Origin: an uncultured Candidatus Saccharibacteria bacterium
Lineage (GTDB): Bacteria; Patescibacteriota; UBA1384; DTJR01
DNA length: 64,000 bases
Direction of reading: 5' to 3'
Assembly: GCA_964487045.1 (NCBI GenBank)
Contig: CAZAOT010000003.1
Location: 72,983-136,982, forward strand
Made by a program: the position numbers and the translations under genes
Notes under the pieces: model-generated
The model's input: the letters and a program-made list of their open reading frames with translations, nothing else
Databases searched by the model: none
Told to the model about the DNA's origin: nothing
Shown here: in pieces, positions 3,729-27,639 of the stretch
How the letters are laid out: each line of letters starts with the position of its first letter
Position numbering within the stretch: the stretch's first letter is position 1

Positions 3729-4154
3729 TTATGAAGCGTCTTCTTTCGTTTCAACGTATCTGCCAAGATCATCACGATCTTCAGCCTTGGCGCCCTTTGG
3801 CAATAGTTTTACTGAAATTTTAAATTTTCGAGTCGAGCCGTCTTGATCGGTGATCATGTCAGTTTTCTTTTCATTATAAAAATCCATCAACTCGACCGAG
3901 AGAATATCTCTTAGGGTCTTTATCTCATCCAGGTTTTCCCTAATGTCTTCGGCGAGCTTGGCATTTCCTTCTTGATTAAAAATTGCATCTCTGACTTCTT
4001 TGCGTTTTTTTGCAGCCGATTTTGCCTCCTCGGCAATTTGAGTGTAGGAGGCATCATTTTCAAGGGCGGAGCGAAGTAGCTCTTTAGCTTTTTTATTTTC
4101 TTCTTCTAGTTTTTCAATAATTCCGATTCTTTCTTTGATGACCGATAAATCCAT
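3729..4154 (-). CDS. hypothetical coiled-coil protein
   Basis: ATG at 4154 lies 5 nt after GGAGCGGAGG. The track start at 4208 falls inside the structured leader. The sequence is K/E-rich and helical. Confidence 0.65.
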   Translation of the reverse strand: MDLSVIKERIGIIEKLEEENKKAKELLRSALENDASYTQIAEEAKSAAKKRKEVRDAIFNQEGNAKLAEDIRENLDEIKTLRDILSVELMDFYNEKKTDMITDQDGSTRKFKISVKLLPKGAKAEDRDDLGRYVETKEDAS

Positions 4155-4290
4155 AATTGCCTCCGCTCCTTGTCCAGCCCTTCGCGAAGGGCTGGACCGG
4201 AAGTCCACCTGGAGCGAAATCTATTTGCAGATTTCTTAAATTAAGAATACTGCAAGAGATTATGCGAAGGTGGACACGCTTATTTTTTAC
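4155..4290 (-). promoter_or_regulatory. structured GC-rich 5' leader (member L3 of GGACTTCCGG...GGAGCGGAGG family)
   Basis: Extended -10 TGTTACAAT lies near 4298-4290. A long-range stem GTCCACCT/AGGTGGAC is present. A 12-bp palindromic hairpin GTCCAGCCCTTC/GAAGGGCTGGAC sits directly before the SD. Confidence 0.5.
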
Positions 4291-6298: not shown

Positions 6299-6990
6299 TC
6301 GTTGCTCCCTGCTTTATCTTTTTCTTCTTCCGTCTCAATCCCTATGATCTTGAGCGCCGAGCTTGTTCCAATTCGAGTGGCGCCTGCTTCAATCATACCC
6401 TTAGCCTCTTCGAATGTATGGATTCCGCCCGATGCTTTGACCTTTACCTCGTCCCCCACAGAAGCACGCATCGTCTTAATATCATCGATGGTCGATGGTC
6501 TTGGGCCGTAGCCAGTCGATGATTTCACAAATGCTGCTCCTGCTTTCTCGGCTCTCTTGCATGCTTCGGTTAGCTCTTCTTCTGTTAGAAAGCCAACTTC
6601 CATAATAACTTTGAGGCCAATTGGCTGAATCGCTGTTGCGATTTCCCTGATTTCTTCTTCGATAAAATCAAATTTCTTCTCTTTAATTGCTCCAATGTTA
6701 ACAACCATATCAATCTCGGTTGCGCCATCTTCTACAGCGAGCTTGGCTTCGGCTACTTTAATTTCGGTTTTTGAAATACCAAATGGAAAGCCAATTACAC
6801 TAATTACTTCAATATCGGCTCCTTCGAGATATTCTTTTGCGGCTGCTACGCGGTAGGTAGTGACGCAAACACTATGAAAACCATATTCCTTAGCTTCAGA
6901 GCAAAGCTTTTTGATGTCTTCATTTGTAGCATCTGCTTTGACACAAGTGTGGTCAATATAAGAAACGATATTTTCTTTTGTAATATTCAT
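6295..6990 (-). CDS. deoC: deoxyribose-phosphate aldolase
   Basis: YIDHTCVK, VIGFPFG, EIDMVVNIG and FVKSSTGYG are DeoC class I aldolase motifs. Confidence 0.9.
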   Translation of the reverse strand: MNITKENIVSYIDHTCVKADATNEDIKKLCSEAKEYGFHSVCVTTYRVAAAKEYLEGADIEVISVIGFPFGISKTEIKVAEAKLAVEDGATEIDMVVNIGAIKEKKFDFIEEEIREIATAIQPIGLKVIMEVGFLTEEELTEACKRAEKAGAAFVKSSTGYGPRPSTIDDIKTMRASVGDEVKVKASGGIHTFEEAKGMIEAGATRIGTSSALKIIGIETEEEKDKAGSNE

Positions 6991-7130
6991 TAAATCTCCT
7001 CAAGTTTAGGTCCTTCGATTCCTGCCCCTCTACCTGACGCACTGCAATAACAGGACGGAGTCAGTTTTGCAGTAAGGAATGGTGTGGGGTGGTCAATATA
7101 TTTTCTAATTGATTGTTGATCTAGTTCCAT
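6990..7130 (-). CDS. upstream mini-ORF (46 codons): DeoC-like N-terminus (..YIDH) fused to conserved tail PTPFLTAKLTPSCYCSASGRGA
   Basis: ATG at 7130 lies 4 nt after AAGGAGGG. The ORF is in frame through the 68-nt element. Its TAA overlaps the deoC ATG as TAATG at 6992-6988. Confidence 0.45.
   Translation of the reverse strand: MELDQQSIRKYIDHPTPFLTAKLTPSCYCSASGRGAGIEGPKLEEI
7021..7088 (-). repeat. 68-nt conserved hairpin element, copy 1 (inverted relative to copy at 13990-14057)
   Basis: CCCACACCATTCCTTACTGCAAAACTGACTCCGTCCTGTTATTGCAGTGCGTCAGGTAGAGGGGCAGG. I counted 59 of 66 positions identical to copy 2. The stem is CTGCAAAAC/GTTATTGCAG. Confidence 0.85.
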
Positions 7131-10021: not shown

Positions 10022-10041
10022 CCTGCCTGCCGGTAGGCAGG
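10022..10041. repeat. GC-rich palindromic hairpin CCTGCCTGCCGGTAGGCAGG
   Basis: Its reverse complement matches 18 nt at 12387-12404. Confidence 0.7.
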
Positions 10042-12216: not shown

Positions 12217-12386
12217 GACGACTCTGTTTTAAAAGTGAAGATTACGGAACTTTTTTTATAATAATTAGGATTGACTTTTTTGTAATAAACACAAGAATTG
12301 GGATATCATTAAGTTATTAGTAATAATAAAATATCCCAGTCACATTTCACCCTCTCGCAATATTCTTAATCTAAGAAATTTGCGAA

Positions 12387-12404
12387 CCTGCCTACCGGCA
12401 GGCA
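12387..12404. repeat. GC-rich palindromic hairpin CCTGCCTACCGGCAGGCA (inverted copy of 10022-10041)
   Basis: 18-nt match to the reverse complement of 10022-10041. Confidence 0.7.
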
Positions 12405-12422
12405 AGTAGGGATCAAAGTGAC

Positions 12423-12477
12423 GGGACTTCCGGAATTGCTTCCTGCCTTGGAGCGCAATTCTCGGAGCGGAGGAAAT
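12423..12477 (+). promoter_or_regulatory. SD-sequestering 5' leader L1 (GGGACTTCCGGAATTGC...GCAATTCTCGGAGCGGAGG)
   Basis: CCGGAATTGC pairs with GCAATTC-N-CGG, and the stem runs into the first GGAG of the SD. About 85% identical to leader L2 at 21435-21490. Confidence 0.55.
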
Positions 12478-12975
12478 ATGGCAAAGCCAACTAAATACGC
12501 AACTCTAATCTGTTTTGTGCTCATGATAGTCGCTGCGATATGCGCCTATATTGGTTATCGCAATCAATCAGCGATTGTTATTGTCCTAGGTCTATTGCCA
12601 ACGGTTATTTATGAAGTCTATCGAACAGAAGGCGAATCAACCCGTGCTTCAAGTTGGCTGATGTTGTTTGTGCTGGTAGCCGAAGCAATCTTAATTTTGT
12701 TTAAGATCAATTTTGATCTCGGGCAATATCTTGGACAATCTGATGCAATAATTGGTGGATCAGTAGTGCCACTTGGCGATATAAAGATTTTGGCTCCAGC
12801 AATTATGGCTCTACTCTCAGTAATTTTATTTACCCGAACAGCCGGAATATATACAAAGTGGTTATCGGTGATAATTTTTGCAGTATCTTTCGTGCTTATT
12901 TATGTTATTTCTCCCGAAGGGTTTTCGGGACTTATAAAATCTGCCATTAATCAGGTTATTTATTGGGGATTCTAA
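12478..12975 (+). CDS. small polytopic membrane protein
   Basis: ATG at 12478 lies 4 nt after GGAGCGGAGG. The track start at 12418 lies inside the leader. Five hydrophobic helices. Confidence 0.65.
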   Translation: MAKPTKYATLICFVLMIVAAICAYIGYRNQSAIVIVLGLLPTVIYEVYRTEGESTRASSWLMLFVLVAEAILILFKINFDLGQYLGQSDAIIGGSVVPLGDIKILAPAIMALLSVILFTRTAGIYTKWLSVIIFAVSFVLIYVISPEGFSGLIKSAINQVIYWGF

Positions 12976-13953: not shown

Positions 13954-14070
13954 ATGATTCGAAACGTTGCGATTATTGCTCATGTAGACCCCACACCGCT
14001 CCTTACTGCAAAACGGATTCCATCCTGTTATTGCAGTGCGTCAGGTCGAGGGGCGAGAGATGACAAATAA
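13954..14070 (+). CDS. upstream mini-ORF (38 codons): TypA-like N-terminus (MIRNVAIIAHVD) fused to conserved tail PTPLLTAKRIPSCYCSASGRGA
   Basis: In frame through the 68-nt element, with TAA at 14068-14070. The nearest GGAGG is 17 nt upstream, so translation is uncertain. Confidence 0.35.
   Translation: MIRNVAIIAHVDPTPLLTAKRIPSCYCSASGRGARDDK
13990..14057 (+). repeat. 68-nt conserved hairpin element, copy 2
   Basis: CCCACACCGCTCCTTACTGCAAAACGGATTCCATCCTGTTATTGCAGTGCGTCAGGTCGAGGGGCGAG. The stem is 14006-14014 paired with 14027-14036. Confidence 0.85.
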
Positions 14071-14081
14071 AATTTTGCCAA

Positions 14082-15902
14082 ATGGATATGAATAAAATTA
14101 GAAATGTAGCTATCATAGCTCATGTAGACCACGGAAAGACCACGCTTGTCGATGGTCTATTAAAGCAGTCCCATACTTTTCGTGACAACCAAGCCGAGAT
14201 GAATCAGACGCTCATTATGGACTCAAACGATCAGGAGAGAGAGCGCGGAATTACAATTTTGGCTAAAAATACCGCAGTAAATTACAAAGATACTAAAATT
14301 AATATTATTGATACTCCTGGCCACGCCGATTTCGGTGGGGAGGTGGAGCGAACGCTCAATATGGCAGATGGCGCGATCCTTGTAGTTGATGCTCAAGAAG
14401 GACCAATGCCTCAAACAAAGTTTGTTTTGAAAAAAGCGCTTGATTTAGGGCTAAAGATTATTGTAGTAATAAACAAAATTGATAAGAAAAATGCGCAAGT
14501 TGAAAGTGTTATAGAAAGAACTTCAGATCTATTTCTTGATTTAGCTTCTGATGAGTCACAGCTCGAATTTCCAATTTTGTTTTCAATTGCCAAGCAAGGT
14601 AAGGCTTGGAGCGAAATGCCACAGAATTTTGAAGAAGACGGTGATCTTTCGAAAATTTTTGAAGCAATTTTGCAGTATATTCCTGCGCCAAAAGTCGAAG
14701 AGGGTCCATTTCAGATGCTTGTATCGGCCTTGGATTGGGATAGCTATCAGGGAAAATACGCAATCGGAAAAATTTCAAGAGGAAAAGCGATGGCTGGTCT
14801 TCAGGTGAGTTTGGTAAATGAAGATGGCGTAAAAGAAAATACTCGAATTGATAAGATTTTTGTTAGCAGCGGTTTGGTCAAACAAGAAGTTAAGGAAGCC
14901 GTGTGTGGCGACATTGTTTCAATTACCGGAATTAAGAACGCTGGAATTGGCGAAACAATCGCTGATCAGACGAGTCCCGAGGCTCTGCCGGGCATAAGTA
15001 TAGAAGAGCCGACCCTTTCGATGGCAATTTCAGCCAATACTTCGCCATTTGCTGGCAAGGAAGGTAAGTTTGTTACTGGCCGACAAATTTTAGACAGAAT
15101 TAAAAAAGAACTAGAGACAAACGTTTCGCTAAAATTTAAACAGGGCGAGGAAGGCGAATATATTCTCTCTGGCCGAGGCGAACTTCACTTGTCCGTCTTT
15201 ATTGAAACTCTTCGTAGAGAAGGTTTTGAGCTTCAAGTTGGTAAGCCACAGGTTATTATCAAAGAGATTGATGGCATTAAGAGCGAACCACTTGAAGAAT
15301 TAACGGTTGATGTCGAAGATCAGTATGTAAATAACGTGATCGCCGAGGTTATAAGACGAAAAGGTGTTTTGCATCATCAGAACCCACTTCTTGATGGCAC
15401 GACCAGGCTTATTTTTGAAATTACAACGCGTGGAATGCTCGGTCTTAGAAGCCAACTAATGACTCTTTCGCGCGGAACAGCTGTCGCTAACTCGATATTT
15501 TTAAGATTTGAAAAAGTTATGAGCGAAATTCCAAGACTTCGAAACGGAGTTTTGATCGCTTCTGAAGATGGCAAGGCTGTAACTTATGGGCTTGATATAG
15601 CTCAGGGCCGAGGAATCACATTTATCGAGCCACAACAGCAAGTCTATAAAGGTATGATTATCGGGCTTAATTCAAAAGAGTCTGATATCGAAATCAATGT
15701 AGCCAAAGAGAAGCATTTGACCAATATTCGAGCTGCTTCTTCTGATATGACCACGGTTTTGACCCCAGCAACAATTTTGTCACTTGAACAATGTATTGAC
15801 TTTTTGGAAGATGACGAGCTTCTTGAGGTTACTCCAACGTCACTTCGACTTCGAAAGAAGATACTCGATCCAACGCAGCGAAATAGAGCTAGAATTCGCT
15901 AA
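14082..15902 (+). CDS. typA: translational GTPase TypA/BipA
   Basis: G1 motif AHVDHGKTT, then DTPGHADF and NKID. Length and C-terminal domains are typical of BipA. The start could also be the ATG at 14088. Confidence 0.95.
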   Translation: MDMNKIRNVAIIAHVDHGKTTLVDGLLKQSHTFRDNQAEMNQTLIMDSNDQERERGITILAKNTAVNYKDTKINIIDTPGHADFGGEVERTLNMADGAILVVDAQEGPMPQTKFVLKKALDLGLKIIVVINKIDKKNAQVESVIERTSDLFLDLASDESQLEFPILFSIAKQGKAWSEMPQNFEEDGDLSKIFEAILQYIPAPKVEEGPFQMLVSALDWDSYQGKYAIGKISRGKAMAGLQVSLVNEDGVKENTRIDKIFVSSGLVKQEVKEAVCGDIVSITGIKNAGIGETIADQTSPEALPGISIEEPTLSMAISANTSPFAGKEGKFVTGRQILDRIKKELETNVSLKFKQGEEGEYILSGRGELHLSVFIETLRREGFELQVGKPQVIIKEIDGIKSEPLEELTVDVEDQYVNNVIAEVIRRKGVLHHQNPLLDGTTRLIFEITTRGMLGLRSQLMTLSRGTAVANSIFLRFEKVMSEIPRLRNGVLIASEDGKAVTYGLDIAQGRGITFIEPQQQVYKGMIIGLNSKESDIEINVAKEKHLTNIRAASSDMTTVLTPATILSLEQCIDFLEDDELLEVTPTSLRLRKKILDPTQRNRARIR

Positions 15903-15988: not shown

Positions 15989-16219
15989 ATGCCGACGTCA
16001 ATCGAGACTAAGGCGAGGAATATCGATAGACACTTGCCGGAGATGATGTGCTTGGCGCACTCGTCCGGCTTGCCTTCGATCATCCTTCCGTTTGGCACTT
16101 TTGACCAGCCAACTCAGGAGAAGCTGCGTGACCTAGTGGCCGAGTACGCCAAAGGCAAGGGCCACAAGACGCGCAAGTTCTTGCATCAGACGCGCCTCTA
16201 TCTCGAGGTGAGTATCTAA
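15989..16219 (+). CDS. hypothetical protein (76 aa), GC-rich cassette 6 gene 1
   Basis: ATG at 15989 after AAAGGAAG. GC-rich. No family recognised. Confidence 0.55.
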   Translation: MPTSIETKARNIDRHLPEMMCLAHSSGLPSIILPFGTFDQPTQEKLRDLVAEYAKGKGHKTRKFLHQTRLYLEVSI

Positions 16220-16226
16220 GGAGGGC

Positions 16227-16448
16227 ATGATGCCCAGGATAACCAGAACTGATTCGGCCGGCAATGCTTTGGAGATCGACGGCGCCAAGGTCGTCGCCGG
16301 GCCTTACGGCTCTCGGGCTGAGGTTGTTGTTGCGCACGCAGAGGTTGGGATGGAGTTGGCTTGTCGTTCGGGACGAATTTCAAGCGGGGTCTTTATTGAG
16401 CTCAATGGAAAGCACTATGCTGTCGAGGTCGCGACACAATTGATGTAA
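16227..16448 (+). CDS. hypothetical protein (73 aa), cassette 6 gene 2
   Basis: AAGGAGGG lies 2 nt before the ATG. There is a 7-nt gap to gene 1. Confidence 0.55.
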   Translation: MMPRITRTDSAGNALEIDGAKVVAGPYGSRAEVVVAHAEVGMELACRSGRISSGVFIELNGKHYAVEVATQLM

Positions 16449-16473
16449 GTTGGCCAAAATAGGGAGGCAGATT

Positions 16474-17739
16474 GTGGACAAAGAAGCGATCCAAGGCGCC
16501 CGCAGGGCGCTTCTGCTCAAGAAGCTTGAAGTAGCATCAACGACCAAGGAATGCACCCTTGCGTTCCAGGGTCTCAAGCTCTACAGAGATGACCTTTCGA
16601 TTGTCGCCACTCGTAAGAGAGCGATTGAGCTCGCAGCTTCGGCAGGCGACATGGATGAGGTTCGTCGCTTTCCGTATGATGTGGGTATCTTCTCTCTGGG
16701 AGATCAGGCTTCCGAGTTCTTTCGTAAGGCCATGCTGCTTTGCAGGCCTGAAGAAGTATACGACTTCACAGGCAACTTCGGCTATTACGCCGATGAAGTT
16801 GTTAGCTTCCTTGTCGAGGGGCTTACCGATCCGCTCAAGCTGACTCGACTAGCGATGCGACTCGGAGCGGAGGGTCTGCTTGAGCGCGGACAGGAAGTGA
16901 TCGCTCGGGCTGCTGAACTGGCTGCAAGCTGGGAAGTGTGCGGTTATGTCGGGACGATACACTATGCGCCGCTTCCGACAGGGTTTCTGACCATGGCCGT
17001 CCTTCTCGCTGAGGGGCAGAAGGGTTACGATGCTCCTCTCGAAGTTTGTGGGTGGATGAAGGCTTCGCTCAACGACCCGCTCGAATTCAGACAAGCAGCG
17101 GCTGTTGCCGAGCTGCTTGATGCGCCAAACAAGCGTATCAGGCGGGTAGCCGGAGAGCGGATCAGGCAGGCTTACCAGGAGAAACTGAGCGGCCAAGATG
17201 GCGACTTCTATATCCAAAGCGCCTGGAACGTCGTTTGCGATGCCCGCGATGCGCTTCCGGAACTGGCTGCAGAGCTGACCGCTGATCTCGTGGTGCGTCT
17301 GACAGATGCGGTACCAGCCTGTCAGGACTTTTCGGAGGCAAAGTCGCATCTTGAAGTCGCTTCCGCAATGGAGGACTTCGGGATCGATGGAGTCTACTGG
17401 CCGGCAGCCATGCGTGCGATGGAGCTGGCAGAGGGCTGTGATGATATCCTGGCGTTGGTGCGCCTTGGCATTCATGTCCAGGAGCTCACCGAGGCTGTCC
17501 TGGTAATGGCTGCAACCGAAGATGATATCATTGCAGTCATACAGCGCAACCCGAACTTCTCTGGTGAGTGGACGTTGCCTCTTTGCGAGCGGATCTTCGA
17601 CTATCGGCGCCAGAGGGCGCAGACGATCGAGGACTTCATGATTCTGCATCACCTGACCAAGGACCCGGTCAAACTGGCCGAGGTCGAGGATCGCATCCAG
17701 GAGCTCATCGCTCCATACCATACCGAGCCTGAGGAGTAA
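16474..17739 (+). CDS. hypothetical all-alpha protein (about 421 aa), cassette 6 gene 3
   Basis: GTG at 16474 lies 6 nt after GGGAGG and is in frame with the track start at 16450. The sequence is acidic and Leu/Ala-rich. A terminator follows. Confidence 0.65.
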   Translation: MDKEAIQGARRALLLKKLEVASTTKECTLAFQGLKLYRDDLSIVATRKRAIELAASAGDMDEVRRFPYDVGIFSLGDQASEFFRKAMLLCRPEEVYDFTGNFGYYADEVVSFLVEGLTDPLKLTRLAMRLGAEGLLERGQEVIARAAELAASWEVCGYVGTIHYAPLPTGFLTMAVLLAEGQKGYDAPLEVCGWMKASLNDPLEFRQAAAVAELLDAPNKRIRRVAGERIRQAYQEKLSGQDGDFYIQSAWNVVCDARDALPELAAELTADLVVRLTDAVPACQDFSEAKSHLEVASAMEDFGIDGVYWPAAMRAMELAEGCDDILALVRLGIHVQELTEAVLVMAATEDDIIAVIQRNPNFSGEWTLPLCERIFDYRRQRAQTIEDFMILHHLTKDPVKLAEVEDRIQELIAPYHTEPEE

Positions 17740-17763
17740 CTTCCCCTGGTTCATGGCTCTACA

Positions 17764-17800
17764 ACGGCTCCCGGCCTAGTGCTTGGGAGCCGTTTTCTTT
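17764..17800 (+). terminator. intrinsic terminator of cassette 6
   Basis: ACGGCTCCC/GGGAGCCGT stem followed by TTTTCTTT. Confidence 0.85.
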
Positions 17801-17852
17801 ACCCTATTACCTTGACAAATGATTCTGATCAGCTAGAATCATACTCGTCTAT

Positions 17853-18962
17853 ATGGATAATATTCTCGAGCCTCCCAGTACGCATAGGCGAGGCCTAAAA
17901 ATAAATAGAATACGACAAAGCGCTCCAAGCGCTTTTGCCGGTTTTGGATTAAAAATCCTCAATAATTTGGAAAACTTGCGTCTATCGATCAGGAAACTGA
18001 TCTTTTTTATTAGGGGTCATATTATTTCGTTTAAAGAATTTGCTAAATTGCACGGTGTTAACCGCTCGCTTGCTTATAAATTTGCGATTGTAGCGGCCAT
18101 TGCACTTCTTCCAGTTCTCTCTAAAGTCACAGCTGAAGATCAGGCTTATGAAGATGTAATTCACTATAGTCAGACAATTGACCCGGTTGAGTCTGCTCGA
18201 TTCGCAGTTTATTTTTCCGGCTATACTCCTGGGCTTTATATTGATGCCGACCAAGTTGCCCTAAATGCAGTTACTAATAACGAGTCATATACTCTGGAGC
18301 AGCAGTTAGCGGTGAATCAAGGTAAGGATTACGCGGTTGAGGGTCGTCAGGAACCGACATATGTTCTAAAATCAGGCGAAACGATTGCTGACGTTGCTTC
18401 TAAGTTTGACTTACATGTCGGAACTCTAGTTGATGCCAACGGACTTGATCCGGTGAATTTGAAGAATGTGAGACCAGGTACAACCTTGATGATTCCTTCA
18501 TCGGATACCAATACTTCAAATGACTGGCTGATTGCAATCAACAAAGATGAAGCTGAGAAGAAGCAAAAAGCGGCTGAGGAAGCAGCCAAAAAGAAAGCGG
18601 AACAGGCCAAGAAGGTAGCTTCAGCGAGCAACAATGTAACAGCTACTGGAACGGTTGCCGGAGCAACGACAAGAAGGCAGGTCAGTTCTGAAGTGACCGT
18701 TATCGGAACTTCTTATTCACAGTGTGTTCCTTGGGCGAGAGAAAATTCCGGAATTGCAATTCAAGGATATGCGGGCAATATTTCTGCTACTCAATCAGAG
18801 CCGAGGGTTGGGGGAGTAGCTCTTGATCGATTTTATGGCCATGCCTCGGTGGTAGTAGAGGTTGGCTCTGATTATATAGTTGTACATGAAGCCAACTGGA
18901 TCCATGGCAAGATTACCAAAAGAAAAGTTTCTAAAGATGCTATCCGCGGATACGTGTATTAG
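17853..18962 (+). CDS. LysM + CHAP-domain peptidoglycan hydrolase, membrane anchored
   Basis: LysM segment YVLKSGETIADVASKFDLHVGTLVDANG...LMIP. C-terminal CHAP-like segment QCVPWARE...GHASVV...HEANW. TTGACA-16-TAGAAT lies upstream at 17811-17838. Confidence 0.75.
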   Translation: MDNILEPPSTHRRGLKINRIRQSAPSAFAGFGLKILNNLENLRLSIRKLIFFIRGHIISFKEFAKLHGVNRSLAYKFAIVAAIALLPVLSKVTAEDQAYEDVIHYSQTIDPVESARFAVYFSGYTPGLYIDADQVALNAVTNNESYTLEQQLAVNQGKDYAVEGRQEPTYVLKSGETIADVASKFDLHVGTLVDANGLDPVNLKNVRPGTTLMIPSSDTNTSNDWLIAINKDEAEKKQKAAEEAAKKKAEQAKKVASASNNVTATGTVAGATTRRQVSSEVTVIGTSYSQCVPWARENSGIAIQGYAGNISATQSEPRVGGVALDRFYGHASVVVEVGSDYIVVHEANWIHGKITKRKVSKDAIRGYVY

Positions 18963-20918: not shown

Positions 20919-21434
20919 TTATATTCTTCTTCTGGAGCTTAGAATAACAATTACGATAATCGGTGCGAGGAGCCAAAGGGTATAATAATCTTTTAGGAAA
21001 TGAACGAAGTGAGTTTGGGAGATAATTTGTGCTTGTGAGGCATCTGGCATGTATTTAAAGATTGTGGCAGAGATTAAAATGCCAGTAATGACTGAATAGA
21101 AGAAGGTCTCGAGCGGTGCCATTAAGGAGTGATCTCTTCCTACTGAGATATCAGCTTTAGAGGCTACCAAGGATACTACGAGCAGAAATAATACTATTTT
21201 GATTGTTGCTGGCGATGCGTCAGAAGTGATCCAGGTATTAGCAACGGTGAGCTTGCCTTCAAAAAACTGCTTGATCGGGTCCGCCCATACCGAAACGATC
21301 ACCATTCCCATATAACAGGCTAGAAGAGCGGACATAATCTTGTCCCGCTGCATCATAAAACCATATAAAACGGTGATAGCAACAAATATACCTAAAAACA
21401 AATCCCAAGTTGGTACGGTTGACGCTACTTGAAT
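20919..21434 (-). CDS. small polytopic membrane protein; start uncertain (ATT 21434 after GGAGCGGAGG, or TTG 21476 as in track)
   Basis: Five hydrophobic helices. There is no ATG/GTG/TTG at SD distance. An in-frame ATT lies 5 nt after GGAGG. Confidence 0.6.
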   Translation of the reverse strand: MQVASTVPTWDLFLGIFVAITVLYGFMMQRDKIMSALLACYMGMVIVSVWADPIKQFFEGKLTVANTWITSDASPATIKIVLFLLVVSLVASKADISVGRDHSLMAPLETFFYSVITGILISATIFKYMPDASQAQIISQTHFVHFLKDYYTLWLLAPIIVIVILSSRRRI

Positions 21435-21590
21435 ATTCCCCTCCGCTCCGTGAATTGCGCTCTTCGTCGGAAGCAATTCCGGAAGCCCCGCATCAATTCA
21501 CGAAGCGAAACACGAATGAATAATTCGAGTGGAGCATTCGAGAATTCGGTGCTGGGGCATTTCATTATTTTCCCTAACAAAAACATTATA
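21435..21590 (-). promoter_or_regulatory. long structured 5' leader (L2) with SD-sequestering stem; riboswitch/attenuator candidate
   Basis: Extended -10 TGGTATAAT near 21592-21584. GCCCC...GGGGC closing stem and CGAATG/CATTCG hairpin. CGCTTCGTGAATTG pairs with CAATTCACGGAGCG, which overlaps the SD. Confidence 0.5.
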
Positions 21591-21620: not shown

Positions 21621-23942
21621 CTATTTAGATTCAATAAATATTGGTGATTGAGTGATGTTTATTGATTTTGAATTGGCTTCTTTTATGTTGCCTAGCTTGT
21701 CGGTTATTGTAACTAGTCCGCTTAAAACGCTGGATAGATCGATATCTGTAGAACAAGTTCGATCTTCATATCTCCATGCTTTGTTGATCTCGTTGTGAGC
21801 ATCGCTGTCTGTTGGGTTTTTAACATTCCAATACGGTTCACACCAAGCAGAGTATTTTTTCTTACCATCGTTGTCGGTAATTTTTATGATAAATAACGGG
21901 TTAACTTCCTCGTGGTTATTTGCAGGTTTCTGGATAAATTCAATTTTTGAAGCATATTTTATATTATTAGCTAAGATCCTATATGCATCAAATGATAACT
22001 TTTTCTGATAACCGTTATTTTGAATCGAATATATACCTTTTAGGAGGTGGTGGCATAATGAATTCTGATTGTTGATTTCGTAATATCCTTCGGAATTTGT
22101 TTGAGATGGGCACGTTCTTTCTTGTATTGTGTCAGCAGAACTATTGCGATATCCATTCCATGATAATCCGCTTATCCCAAGCGATGAAATTGTTAAAAAT
22201 CTTTTAATTAGATCATCTGATTGAAAATTTTGCGAAAATGTCATCGAAAAACCAGTTGCTACACCATTATTATCATCGATATATTTACTATCGCTTGGAG
22301 ACCCGATTTCTGTAGCGAATATTGGCTTATTGCAATTATTTCTTCCTGAGCAAAGGGTGTCGTAAATTTCCATATTTTTCTGCGTTCTATCCCAATATTG
22401 TGTATAGCCCATGAATCTATTTGGATGAAGGTTGATATGAAATTCATGAGCATCGACAAAGTTATTGTATGAATTTTGTTTTAATACTTCGAAATATGAA
22501 AGGTTATTCATACTAGTCTTGTCCGGGTTCATAAATCCGGCGCTTACCACCCGACAGTCACTGCACATTTTTTTGACAACTGAGCGCAGGCCCTGGCTGA
22601 GATCATAAGCTACTCCTTCATAAATGACTTGCTCTCCCTCCAGGCTAGCTAGTATATTTCCTTGAGTATCTTTGTATGAGCCTGTAGTGATAAGCGAAAG
22701 TGCTTCTGCCGGTATGCCAAAGGCGCTGTCGGAATTAAAGTTGCCATCGGGTTCGTTCCATATTTGCCAATACTTGATGCTATCTTTATATAAATTAAGT
22801 CTAGGTAAAACCATTCCCTTAAAATAATGCTCTCTTACTAATGCCTCTAACTTATTCCAGTCGGCGTTTGCTGGTCGAGTGTTGATATTCCCGTTTGGAG
22901 AATACCCACTATATAGCCTAATATCTTGCCTAACCTTGTCGTAATGTGTATATTTTTGTCCTGAACTGTCCAGAATATCGCTACCCCTATCGGTTTGAAT
23001 TGTAATTCGAGGGAGGAAGTTTCCCATCAAAATCCGTCCATCTCGTTTAAAATTTTGGGCGGCAGCTAGGTCATTATTTCTTTCTGATCTTTTTTCGTCA
23101 AAGTTGATATATCTTAAAAAATTTACTTGTAGCTCTGAAATGTCGCTAGTGAAATTTGTTCCTTGGGTGTCAGTATTGAGTACGGGGGAAGGGTTGAACC
23201 CAATTAAATATTTACGATTTAAGTATGATTCAGATGCATCTGATATTTCTGTTATTTTTACATTTGGCGTAAAGAAATAAACCCAAACATTAGATGCGCT
23301 AGTCAGTCTCTGAGCGTTATATTCGTTTGCAATTGTAATCTTTTTAAAAACAATTGACTTATTTTCGCTAACTGCGCTGTAAATATTTGAAGAAATTGCT
23401 TTTTGATCAATAAGGGCATCTGCTGAGAAGATATTTCCACTGGATAATTTAAAGCTGGTTTTTTTAAGGAAATCCTGTTTTGTTTCTGGCTTAGAGGGAG
23501 AAACTATATGCCAACCAGGTCGATAGTTACTCTGAATATTAGATAGAGTTGTTTTATTTATCTTTGGAAAAGTCCGACCAGAATTTTTATTATATGTTAG
23601 ATATGAGAGTTTAGGATTTAGGCCAATATCTGAGATACAGGGCATCTCCTGAACTACGGCATAACCCTGGCAGTTATTTGATAGATAAGTCCACCCGGTG
23701 TTGTTAGTATTTGGATCGTTGTAAGTGTATATTAAAACGCCTGAATCAAGAACCTCTCTTTGCGTAATAGAATTTAGATCCTGCCCGTTTATCACGCTCC
23801 ACCCAGGTGGAATAGATACAGAGTTGGAGTCTGAATCAGCAAAGATATTGTTTTTTAACAAGAAATGAATCCCGATTAAAAGAATTAGGACGACAGAAGC
23901 CAATAAAACCGATTTCCTAAAAATTTTCTTTTTAACTATCAC
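21621..23942 (-). CDS. signal-anchored protein with putative glycoside-hydrolase (TIM-barrel, NEP motif) domain
   Basis: N-terminal anchor. YWQIWNEPDG resembles the acid/base motif of clan GH-A enzymes. The rest is unassigned. Confidence 0.5.
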   Translation of the reverse strand: MIVKKKIFRKSVLLASVVLILLIGIHFLLKNNIFADSDSNSVSIPPGWSVINGQDLNSITQREVLDSGVLIYTYNDPNTNNTGWTYLSNNCQGYAVVQEMPCISDIGLNPKLSYLTYNKNSGRTFPKINKTTLSNIQSNYRPGWHIVSPSKPETKQDFLKKTSFKLSSGNIFSADALIDQKAISSNIYSAVSENKSIVFKKITIANEYNAQRLTSASNVWVYFFTPNVKITEISDASESYLNRKYLIGFNPSPVLNTDTQGTNFTSDISELQVNFLRYINFDEKRSERNNDLAAAQNFKRDGRILMGNFLPRITIQTDRGSDILDSSGQKYTHYDKVRQDIRLYSGYSPNGNINTRPANADWNKLEALVREHYFKGMVLPRLNLYKDSIKYWQIWNEPDGNFNSDSAFGIPAEALSLITTGSYKDTQGNILASLEGEQVIYEGVAYDLSQGLRSVVKKMCSDCRVVSAGFMNPDKTSMNNLSYFEVLKQNSYNNFVDAHEFHINLHPNRFMGYTQYWDRTQKNMEIYDTLCSGRNNCNKPIFATEIGSPSDSKYIDDNNGVATGFSMTFSQNFQSDDLIKRFLTISSLGISGLSWNGYRNSSADTIQERTCPSQTNSEGYYEINNQNSLCHHLLKGIYSIQNNGYQKKLSFDAYRILANNIKYASKIEFIQKPANNHEEVNPLFIIKITDNDGKKKYSAWCEPYWNVKNPTDSDAHNEINKAWRYEDRTCSTDIDLSSVLSGLVTITDKLGNIKEANSKSINITQSPIFIESK

Positions 23943-23966: not shown

Positions 23967-24599
23967 TTATCTCTGCCACCAAGATGATTTCTTTTGTTTA
24001 TCGAGATCTTTGAGCTTTTGCCATAAATCTTTTTGTTCTTTAGTAAGACGCTCTGGGAAACGGATTCTAATAATTATAATTAAATCACCTTTCTGACCAT
24101 TTCTGGTTGCTCGTCCTTTTTCTTTGATTCGGTATTGTGTTCCGTCTTGAGTCCCAGGATGTATCTGGAGGGTGATTTTCTCGTCCCCTACTTGAAGGTC
24201 GAATTCATCTCCAAGTACAGCTTGGGCAGGAGAGATTTCAACTTCTGCTTGTACGGTAGCGAAAGCATTTGAAAAAAAGTCTCCGAAAATGTCGCCTAAG
24301 CCACCCATATTGCCAAAATTGAATTCAAAACCTTCACCGCCAAAGTCATAACCACCAGATTGATAACCACTAAATCCGCCTTGGCCGCCGCTACCAGAGA
24401 AGCCACTTTGGCCAAAACGATCATATTGGGCTCTTTTTTGGGGATCGGAAAGAACCTGGTATGCTTCGTTAATTTTTTTAAATTCGGCCTCATCGCCTCC
24501 TTTATCCGGATGATGCTTCAAAGCAAGCTTTCGATAAGCTTTTTTTATCTCGTCTGCGGAGGCGTTTTTGTCTATGCCGAGTAGTTTGTAGTAATCCAT
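23967..24599 (-). CDS. J-domain co-chaperone (short DnaJ/CbpA-like, no zinc finger)
   Basis: YYKLLGI...[14 protein letters not shown] is followed by a G/F-rich region. The Cys-rich domain is absent. Confidence 0.88.
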
Positions 24600-27512: not shown

Positions 27513-27639
27513 ATTGCTTCCTTTCTTCGCTTTAGGATTAGGTTTGCGCTGCTTATGCAACCCACCTATAAATTTTTATTAACTAAAATAATTGTAAAGT
27601 AGACTTTACATTTTGTCAAGAGTCAGTTACTTAATAGGT

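Follow-up and report, generated by a model that had tools for sequence, protein, structure and literature searches.

We describe a structured 5' leader in a stretch of 64,000 nucleotides (hereafter, the window) from an uncultured Candidatus Saccharibacteria bacterium, corresponding to positions 72,983 to 136,982 of contig CAZAOT010000003.1. Three genes in the window carry it, in leaders L1, L2, and L3. As judged from comparison with relatives, these leaders belong to a conserved, covarying, and strand-specific two-domain 5' leader that supplies the ribosome-binding site (RBS) of many unrelated genes in Patescibacteria. A first-pass annotation had described a repeated GC-rich module in front of the three genes as a dispersed translational control element that sequesters the Shine-Dalgarno (SD) sequence. 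The module is real, but it makes up only the 3' third of a leader of 110–145 nt. The notion of a dispersed RNA-level element in 5' leaders was borne out, since we found 32 covarying copies before unrelated genes, 29 of them in addition to the three in the window.

Architecture of the three leaders in the window

Approximately 150 nt upstream of each start codon were folded to define the architecture. From 5' to 3', the leader consists of domain I, which is a rod closed by helix P1, followed by 1–2 nt, hairpin P4, a single C, the sequence GGAGG, a spacer, and the start codon. The base of P4 is a polypyrimidine/polypurine helix (CUUYC.../...GRAG). The pairings proposed in the first-pass annotation, namely the outer CUUCCG/CGGAG, the inner GAAUUGC/GCAAUUC of L1 and L2, and a different perfect inner helix in L3, were all recovered in the minimum-free-energy (MFE) folds. 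Promoter-like sites lie 5' of domain I, and the whole unit is therefore a 5' untranslated region (UTR). Domain I occurs in at least four swappable types with a GC-rich, variable P1.

A covariance model built from relatives and run with filters off scored 75.9, 66.2, and 41.9 bits for L1, L2, and L3, respectively (E-values of 1e-19 to 7e-10); it detected only these three copies in the whole 64-kb window, the next match reaching 12 bits. The exact sequence GGAGCGGAGG occurs four times in the window, in the three leaders and at 16864, and with up to one mismatch it gives 11 matches against 2.3 ± 1.4 expected. A stricter pattern that combines the CTTCCGG..GGAGCGGAGG pair with a short AT-rich tail gave no match in 100 shuffles; it picks up L2 and L3, while L1 is lost through its tail. 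The GGAGCGGAGG at 16864 was considered as a fourth copy and treated as chance: it lies within a GC-rich open reading frame (ORF), scores 12 bits, and is not followed by a start codon. This ORF (16450–17739, +; 429 aa; no Pfam family) is followed by a strong terminator (17763–17794) and sits in a block of 55% GC (16000–18000) in a genome of ~40% GC. The block is probably foreign DNA and its GGAGCGGAGG probably fortuitous.

L1 was found exactly where the annotation had placed it, at 12423–12480 (+). Its domain I (12335–12425, +) is a rod closed by P1 CCCaGUCAC / GUGACGGG (fold z = -5.0), which contains the hairpin GCAAUAUUCUUAAUCUAAGAAAUUUGC and, as an insertion, the GC hairpin CCUGCCUACCGGCAGG. 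It matched the type 1/3 profile (nhmmer, E = 6e-4), and its architecture is common to L3 and 11 relatives. P4 of L1 (12428–12467, +; -20.2 kcal/mol; 75.9 bits) comprises the outer UUCCG/CGGAG, inner GAAUUGC/GCAAUUC, and apical UUCC/GGAG pairings, and the first GGAG of the leader is part of its 3' strand. The RBS (12469–12480, +) consists of the SD GGAGG at 12469–12473, a 4-nt spacer, and ATG at 12478–12480. The coding sequence (CDS; 12478–12975, +) encodes a 165-aa membrane protein.

The string assigned to L2 ends at 21432 (-) as annotated, although it begins, with GGGGCTTCC..., at 21489 and not at 21490. L2 has the same P4 as L1 under a different upstream domain of type 2. This type 2-like domain I (21486–21558, -) has P1 GCCCCaGCA / UGCGGGG around the hairpin CACUCGAAUUAUUCAUUCGUG and matched the type 2 profile (nhmmer, E = 1e-5); its fold is less clear (z = -2.3). 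P4 of L2 (21446–21484, -; 66.2 bits; -15.2 kcal/mol) is 95–96% identical to that of L1 in its arms. The RBS (21432–21444, -) comprises GGAGG at 21444–21440, a 5-nt spacer, and the non-AUG start codon AUU at 21434–21432; orthologues have AUC or AUA at this place, where codon-level conservation begins. The CDS (21434–20919, -) encodes a 171-aa membrane protein.

Start codons for Ile were also seen elsewhere (sequences from relatives are cited by three-digit handles): at L116:15485, in the L139, L140, L141, and L142 orthologues of the L2 gene, at L128:2481, and at L135:1869. In the L2 orthologues they stand 4–5 nt 3' of GGAGG, and a small membrane protein of L128 (AUA/AUU) and a P-type ATPase of L135 (AUU) also appear to start at Ile codons. 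Such non-AUG starts may be common in the lineage, and the starts concerned are mis-set by gene callers. A 47-codon upstream ORF (uORF; 21565–21425, -), whose ATG at 21565 lies just 5' of the P1 5' strand, spans the whole of L2 and ends with a UAG 6 nt into the main ORF; it is probably incidental, because the L139 orthologue does not have it.

For L3, the annotated end (4152, -) was likewise right and the start was not, since GGTGGAC begins at 4209 rather than 4212. Domain I of L3 (4203–4275, -; type 1; fold z = -6.2; nhmmer E = 2e-20) is closed by P1 GUCCACCU / AGGUGGAC, after which come P2 AAUCU/AGAUU, P3 UUGCAG/CUGCAA, and the apical UUCUUAA/UUAAGAA. The rods of L1 and L3 share the hairpin GCARUAUUCUUAAUYUAAGAAAUYUGC, with an A-U to G-C compensatory change between the two leaders. 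In P4 of L3 (4166–4202, -; -24.8 kcal/mol; 41.9 bits), the inner helix is swapped to GUCCAGCCCUU / AAGGGCUGGAC and the outer UCC/GGA is retained. The RBS (4152–4164, -) has GGAGG at 4164–4160, a 5-nt spacer, and ATG at 4154–4152; the CDS (4154–3729, -) encodes a 141-aa coiled-coil protein.

The three downstream genes are unrelated, as the annotation had stated: the L1 and L2 proteins matched each other with a BLASTP E-value of 0.19. None of the three proteins matched a Pfam or NCBIfam family, and the best named relatives of the window proteins are from Berkelbacteria, Dojkabacteria, and Uhrbacteria. We also considered whether the leaders are coding or contain a leader peptide. All three are open in frame with their genes; however, the frames of L1 and L2 differ because of single-nucleotide indels in the loop and after GGAGG. 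The leader is conserved at the level of nucleotides and pairing, not of reading frame, and the coding possibility was rejected.

Copies in relatives and covariation

The 32 distinct copies come from ~323 kb of DNA of Patescibacteria (Saccharibacteria, Berkelbacteria, and others), drawn from metagenome-assembled genomes (MAGs) and metagenome contigs. An exact-pattern scan of one genome per species gave 115 matches, ~90% of which are chance matches in GC-rich genomes, set apart by GC content and context. Seven are true copies: three in the Saccharibacteria MAG CAZXAY01, two in the Saccharibacteria MAG CAZPNA01, one in the Berkelbacteria MAG PFQF01, and one in a Patescibacteria MAG. A stricter pattern yielded 17 more copies in metagenomes, where two further candidates (L129 and L136) were discarded as chance matches, and a pattern scan of a viral contig collection gave no match. 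Five further copies were detected with the covariance model on contigs that had been retrieved by way of L1 and L2 protein orthologues, and these were not ascertained by the motif. Scanning of relatives, which the annotation had suggested as a check, revealed copies in Saccharibacteria, Berkelbacteria, and other Patescibacteria; the outcome that the annotation had named as refuting it, a lack of additional copies or covariation, did not occur.

The pairing of P4 is strongly supported by these copies. In all, 98.5% of cells were paired and compensatory changes were seen at 9 of the 16 pairs, a level reached by none of 500 shuffles, and controls in which the helix was slid gave 37–66% pairing. 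The inner helix varies as GAAUUGC/GCAAUUC, GAAUUUC/GAAAUUC, GUUUUGC/GCAAAAC, and GAUUUUU/AAAAAUC, and it is wholly replaced by GUCUCGCC/GGCGGAC, GUCCGC/GCGGAC, GAUCCUGAAUU/AAUUCAGGAUC, GUCGGC/GCCGAC, or GUCAA/UUGAC in other copies. The helix swap that the annotation saw in L3 is therefore genuine, given the compensatory changes in relatives. The outer helix looks invariant in the pattern-ascertained copies and covaries in the unascertained ones, which carry CUUUCGG...CGAAG (L116 and L139), CUUUCUG...CAGAAG (L140), CUUCCCG...CGGGAG (L116), and CGGAA (L141). Here C-G is replaced by U-A in three copies, and L116 has an extra C-G pair. Domain I of types 1/3 was 95.5% paired, with compensatory changes at 8 of 18 pairs and none of 500 shuffles reaching this level.

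The selected molecule is the sense-strand RNA rather than a DNA palindrome, because P4 contains a near-invariant U·G pair (31 of 32 copies) as well as a UG/UA pair. The hairpins are also DNA palindromes, and two sites described below (A and B) resemble recombination junctions, which might point to a DNA-level element such as an operator palindrome or a recombination site. However, in DNA, and likewise on the opposite strand, the conserved U·G pairs and bulges would count as mismatches, the leader lies downstream of promoter-like sites, and a 35-nt insertion in a hairpin loop (L072 and L121) preserves the RNA fold where it would ruin operator spacing. Chance similarity is contradicted by covariance-model E-values of 1e-9 to 1e-21. 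We find a DNA element or chance scarcely credible.

In 28 of 28 copies measured, the start codon lies 2–8 nt 3' of GGAGG, mostly 4–5 nt, and four later copies (L116b, L139, L140, and L141) are also directly before a start codon. All canonical modules whose neighborhood was read are in the sense orientation to the start codon and immediately 5' of it.

Accessibility of the SD sequence

The first-pass annotation took the leader to be SD-sequestering, and this holds only in part. Only the upstream GGAG lies in the stem, with an unpaired probability of ~0.1 in the partition function, whereas the functional SD GGAGG lies 1 nt 3' of the helix. In the unascertained copies, the upstream GGAG is replaced by GAAG (L116, L139, and L140) or GGAA (L141), and in the GAAG copies the 5' strand has changed from C to U in compensation; the upstream GGAG is thus a helix strand and not a conserved SD. 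Leaderless genes use AGGAGG followed by 4–5 nt, which is the same spacing (the uORF at site B and the L140–L142 orthologues of the L2 gene). The 16S rRNA 3' end in L124 is GGAUCACCUCCUUUCU (...CACCUCCUUUCU), so the anti-SD is canonical. The unpaired probability of GGAGG was 0.75 in L1, 0.73 in L3, and 0.17 in L2, with a mean of 0.43 over 28 copies, compared with 0.31 for eight ordinary GGAGG-led genes of the window. By this prediction, the true SD is no less accessible than the SD of ordinary genes.

The RNA thermometer that the annotation had mentioned, here acting on heat-shock genes, would be consistent with a hairpin in the ribosome-binding region and with copies before dnaK (L132 and L140), groES (L095), and hsp20 (L030), as well as with the location of the L2 gene beside grpE-dnaK-dnaJ. 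These chaperone copies are 4 of the 32; most copies precede genes outside the heat-shock set. The SD and start codon lie outside the helix, with the covariation-supported P4 ending 1 nt 5' of GGAGG. In silico, P4 (-15 to -25 kcal/mol) is still folded at 80 °C, and the SD accessibility is nearly flat from 20 to 45 °C (0.40 to 0.46). The dnaK promoters of the window, L132, and L140 also carry a separate conserved inverted repeat, which probably serves heat-shock control. A thermometer is thus very unlikely.

The dnaK promoters of four genomes share this repeat, TTGACAAAATGTAAAG-N4-CTTTACAAT, between their -35 and -10 boxes: in the window at 27612–27580, in L132 at ~2100, at L140:11985-11955, and at L116:19800-19770, all on the minus strand. 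It differs from the CIRCE consensus and is a candidate heat-shock repressor operator. The window dnaK (region read: 27590–27510, -) has no canonical module; the end of its leader, ...GCGAAGAAAGGAAGCAAUAUG, resembles that of the L140 dnaK leader, ...AGAAGCGGAGGCAAUAUG, and it may be a degenerate relative.

A more serious alternative is a regulated translational operator. The SD would be masked by a trans-acting factor, be it an RNA-binding protein or a small RNA, or through a conformational change, and a regulon of stress and housekeeping genes would thereby be controlled together. Either CUUCCG would move from the first CGGAG to CGGAGG, a shift that the tandem CGGAG-CGGAGG permits by offering two pairing registers, or CCUUCG after P1 would pair with CGGAGG. 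The SD does pair with the P1 5' strand in the MFE fold or ensemble of L002, L116, L118, L138, and the window L2; conservation is very high at the junctions, in contrast to the variable helices; and the leader is found on dnaK, groES, hsp20, and a gene next to dnaJ. On the other hand, covariation supports the SD-free register only (CUUCCCG/CGGGAG and CUUUCG/CGAAG), and CCUUCG is perfect in only ~8 of 26 copies, being CCGUCG, CCGGCG, or CCUAAA elsewhere. No factor that might fill this role was found, the genes span a broad range, and the element is often missing from orthologues. We therefore consider an operator rather unlikely. A conserved 5' anti-SD, either CCUUCG or CCUUCGCUC pairing with GAGCGGAGG, was examined as a general feature and rejected as not conserved, since outside type 2 only a few copies have it in perfect form.

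Variability of domain I

The sequence UAUUC is present in all types of domain I, in differing structural contexts, and no consistent complementary partner for it was found near the start codon. No K-turn, sarcin-ricin, or attC signature was found by eye. Domain I might be suspected of being the aptamer of a riboswitch for a metabolite or an ion, given the two-domain layout, in which a P1-closed upstream domain adjoins the RBS hairpin, and the strong covariation. Yet domain I is the least conserved part of the leader, with at least 4–5 unrelated apical designs and few conserved unpaired nucleotides, its copies having in common only the helices and a few nucleotides at the base, and the downstream genes (chaperones, glycolysis, cell division, ion pumps, ferredoxin, and membrane proteins) have no common pathway. 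No Rfam family matched even at E ≤ 10. A riboswitch is accordingly highly improbable, and the ligand-responsive hairpin suggested in the annotation fares no better, with a variable upstream domain and heterogeneous genes.

Domain I has received extra GC hairpins at fixed positions in L1, L072, L121, and L127, and its fold is preserved. In L1, a 16-nt GC-rich palindrome, CCTGCCTACCGGCAGG, lies in domain I at 12387–12402 (+). It recurs inverted at 10026–10041 (+), just after the tRNA-Lys promoter, and with up to one mismatch it was observed four times in the window (two overlapping) against 0.09 expected. Similar GC hairpins, CCGCCUGC...GCGGGCAGG, are inserted in the L072, L121, L127, and L116 leaders. 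CCTGCCTACCGGCAGG may be a tiny mobile palindrome.

Profile searches revealed domain I also without the P4/GGAGCGGAGG module. At L023:4315-4246 and L135:8113-8175, it is combined with another hairpin, CRCAACA...UGUUGYG, that ends 0–2 nt before the SD. This alternative 3' module (L023:4246-4180, -; L135:8176-8225, +) has the form CRCAACA-(AU-rich loop ending UUAAUGU)-GUUGYG and is directly followed by AAAGGA or GAGGG and AUG. The P4/GGAGCGGAGG module is thus one of at least two interchangeable RBS modules. The recurrent design is, as read from these copies, a P1-closed domain, a hairpin, and an SD abutting the hairpin.

Two further type-4 copies of domain I without P4/GGAGCGGAGG lie in the window, namely site A (13988–14054, +; nhmmer E = 2e-20), which aligns with the L120 tpiA leader, and site B (7024–7090, -; nhmmer E = 5e-21). 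The two are 91% identical over 67 nt, inverted relative to each other, and both homologous to the L120 tpiA leader. Site A is flanked by a duplicated N-terminal fragment of bipA (13955–13990), the real bipA start being at 14082/14088; site B is flanked by an N-terminal fragment of a foreign-type deoC (7129–7088), the real deoC start being at 6990.

Each site (13955–14090, + and 7129–6988, -) lies inside a uORF that opens with a second copy of the N-terminus of the downstream gene. The upstream bipA copy MIRNVAIIAHVD differs from the real start MDMNKIRNVAIIAHVDH by synonymous changes only, and the upstream deoC copy MELDQQSIRKYIDH stands against the real start MNITKENIVSYIDH. In type, the upstream deoC fragment is that of the distant relative L118, whereas the functional deoC matches the closest relatives, L116 and L139. 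At both sites one reading frame spans the element, and the stop of the deoC uORF overlaps the start codon (UAAUG). Sites A and B look like products of inter-lineage recombination or of a mobile leader cassette. It is unlikely that ribosomes bypass, or splicing removes, the stretch between the duplicated GAC(CAC) codons, since there is no stop after the take-off codon and the gap is ~140 nt. The duplication was found at sites A and B only; 28 of 28 canonical leaders were negative for an N-terminal duplication 5' of the leader, the best matching 13–17 of 24 nt, no better than shuffles.

Downstream genes and patchy distribution

The genes downstream of the leader, most of them with housekeeping or stress roles, encode DnaK (twice), GroES, Hsp20, enolase, triose-phosphate isomerase (tpiA), DeoC, FtsA (twice), bactofilin, H+-pyrophosphatase, P-type ATPase, ferredoxin, YkuD transpeptidase, a response regulator, DUF308 and DUF1761 proteins, and many small membrane or secreted proteins. 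Presence among orthologues is patchy. Orthologues of the L1 gene in L116 and L118 have no leader (spacers of 13 and 67 nt). The L2 gene has the leader in three of six genomes (the window, L116, and L139) and a plain AGGAGG SD in L140–L142. For dnaK, the canonical module was found in two of seven (L132 and L140 only), and for deoC in L118 only. The P4 variants are common to unrelated genes and genomes and differ between orthologous L2 leaders, which suggests module exchange and not vertical descent. The "mobile 5' UTR module" entertained in the first-pass annotation fits this patchiness.

In all relatives, the L2 gene has grpE-dnaK-dnaJ as its neighbors, and in the window its neighbor is dnaJ. 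Between dnaJ (23967–24599) and the L2 gene, the window has a 773-aa ORF (21621–23942, -) without a family match; it is an insertion specific to this genome, because dnaJ and the L2 gene are adjacent in L116, L139, L140, and L142.

The same distribution could also reflect a selfish repeat, dispersed and palindromic, of the REP, ERIC, BOX, or Correia/miniature inverted-repeat transposable element (MITE) type that is co-transcribed with genes, with any effect on expression being a by-product or a later co-option. The leader is multi-copy, modular, and mosaic, and it shows presence/absence polymorphism at orthologous loci (absent from the L1 gene in two of two relatives, and present in 3/6 for the L2 gene and 2/7 for dnaK). 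Extra GC hairpins occupy the fixed points of domain I noted above, domain I occurs outside leaders (L116:19943-19851, L124:14191-14267, and L131:7596-7665), and five family members cluster in a 17-kb part of the window, whose other 42 kb contain no member. Against this, all 28 measured copies are in register with the start codon and give the gene its only SD, and the canonical modules whose neighborhood was read are sense-oriented and abut starts, the isolated copies of domain I being less strict. There are no conserved terminal inverted repeats, as P1 differs and covaries (GUGACGGG, UGCGGGG, AGGUGGAC, GGCGGAC, and GAGGGAC). The U·G pairs are strand-specific, and the structure is kept by compensatory change across Saccharibacteria and Berkelbacteria. 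No target-site duplication was visible in the flanks read, and no transposase or RAYT-like gene was seen nearby. Taken together, we judge a selfish repeat to be improbable, to about the same degree as an operator.

Discussion

We propose that the leader is a cis-acting cassette that presents the RBS and/or stabilizes the mRNA. This is the function that we favor, and our confidence in it is about evenly divided. The two stable helical domains would lock all upstream mRNA sequence, and a strong SD would be presented single-stranded right beside the helix end, on which the SD/anti-SD duplex could stack. The outcome would be robust translation initiation and/or shielding of the 5' region from RNases. 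The leader could thereby be a portable cassette for abundant housekeeping, chaperone, and envelope proteins, evolving by helix swaps, with recombination accounting for its gain, its loss, and its exchange among genes. What is observed is the leader's structure, conservation, position, and gene set; its effect on translation or stability and its mode of spread are inferred.

Several observations weigh against this proposal. Predicted -10 boxes lie 19–55 nt before P1; unless processing shortens the RNA, domain I would thus not form its very 5' end, unlike in classic 5' stabilizers. Conservation at the junctions GGRCUUYC and RARCGGAGG exceeds what pairing alone demands, which hints at a sequence-specific partner and hence at regulation rather than constitutive presentation. 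The predicted SD accessibility spans 0.03–0.77 among copies and is as low as 0.17 in L2. Domain I also stands apart from leaders, 5' of the dnaK promoter at L116:19943-19851 and at L124:14191-14267, and a simple SD seems to be enough for the orthologues that have no leader. In addition, most copies were collected with an exact pattern, by which the apparent conservation is inflated.

More tentatively, the modules could be interchangeable cassettes specific to the Candidate Phyla Radiation (CPR), whose recognition by an RNA-binding factor or RNase would create one post-transcriptional regulon, and which would move between genes and lineages by recombination, sometimes together with the 5' end of a gene. 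We regard this extension as doubtful. Sites A and B, where a family member stands between a foreign and a native N-terminus, would be explained by cassettes that sometimes carry a gene 5' end. If such a factor recognizes the leader, chaperones, glycolysis, cell division, and envelope proteins would be tied together.

To our knowledge, almost nothing is known of gene regulation in Patescibacteria (CPR). The leader would mark a gene set that is probably co-controlled or highly expressed. To the genetic systems newly available in Saccharibacteria, it would contribute an expression element that is natural and portable, and it would serve as a case study of 5' UTR module swapping in genomes that are reduced and naturally competent. 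The structure model is precise enough for reporters to test the claims directly.

The leader appears to be an undescribed family within a known kind of element, the structured cis-acting 5' UTR. The comparison with Rfam suggested in the first-pass annotation matched it to no family: in Rfam 15 (4227 families), the window at gathering thresholds gave tRNA-Lys only, and the three leaders gave nothing near threshold at E ≤ 10, the best being ATPC with 25 bits against a gathering threshold of 45. We found no paper on the motif or on a regulatory RNA specific to Patescibacteria.

The closest functional analogy is the 5' UTR of Escherichia coli ompA, a portable leader of ~130 nt with two stem-loops, the second directly 5' of an exposed SD, which acts in cis on stability and translation. 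The two-hairpin layout and the SD beside the second hairpin are alike, as a functional analogy only. In contrast, there is no sequence similarity, the ompA leader belongs to a single gene while the Patescibacteria leader stands on dozens of unrelated genes per lineage, and domain I seems to be 15–50 nt from the likely 5' end. A second parallel is with the polypurine 5' stabilizers of Bacillus, the STAB-SD of cry3A and the leader of phage SP82. The polypurine, SD-like GGAGCGGAGG could similarly engage the 16S 3' end beyond the core SD; however, its upstream half is base-paired and not conserved as GGAG, and the tract is a true RBS, not a distant decoy. The ROSE and fourU thermometers also have a hairpin in the translation-initiation region, and some copies of the leader are 5' of dnaK, groES, and hsp20. 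They differ from it in that its SD and AUG are outside P4, which is GC-rich, very stable, and without weak or non-canonical melting pairs; the ROSE_2 model gave 16 bits against a gathering threshold of 65, on the opposite strand.

Among dispersed DNA repeats, ERIC/IRU, BOX, Correia/NEMIS, and REP/BIME elements are multi-copy, modular, imperfect palindromes with optional insertions and a patchy distribution, are co-transcribed, and can alter mRNA fate. The leader resembles them in copy number, modularity, optional internal insertions, and patchiness between related genomes. It differs in its fixed orientation, its exact register with the start codon, and its supply of the SD, and also in that its terminal helix shows covariation instead of a conserved inverted repeat; no duplication of the target was observed. 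In integron attC sites, the core sites R''/R' (RYYYAAC ... GTTRRRY) flank an imperfect hairpin in cassette arrays, whereas the ends CCCGCC...GGCGGAC of the leader have no GTTRRRY and its flanking genes, such as dnaK, eno, and tpiA, belong to the syntenic core. Finally, the cis-regulatory leaders of Rfam, such as ribosomal-protein leaders and candidate motifs, are likewise covarying structured 5' UTRs found comparatively. Those leaders usually stay with one gene family and the Patescibacteria leader does not; its spread over many genes and the swapping of its modules are its unusual traits.

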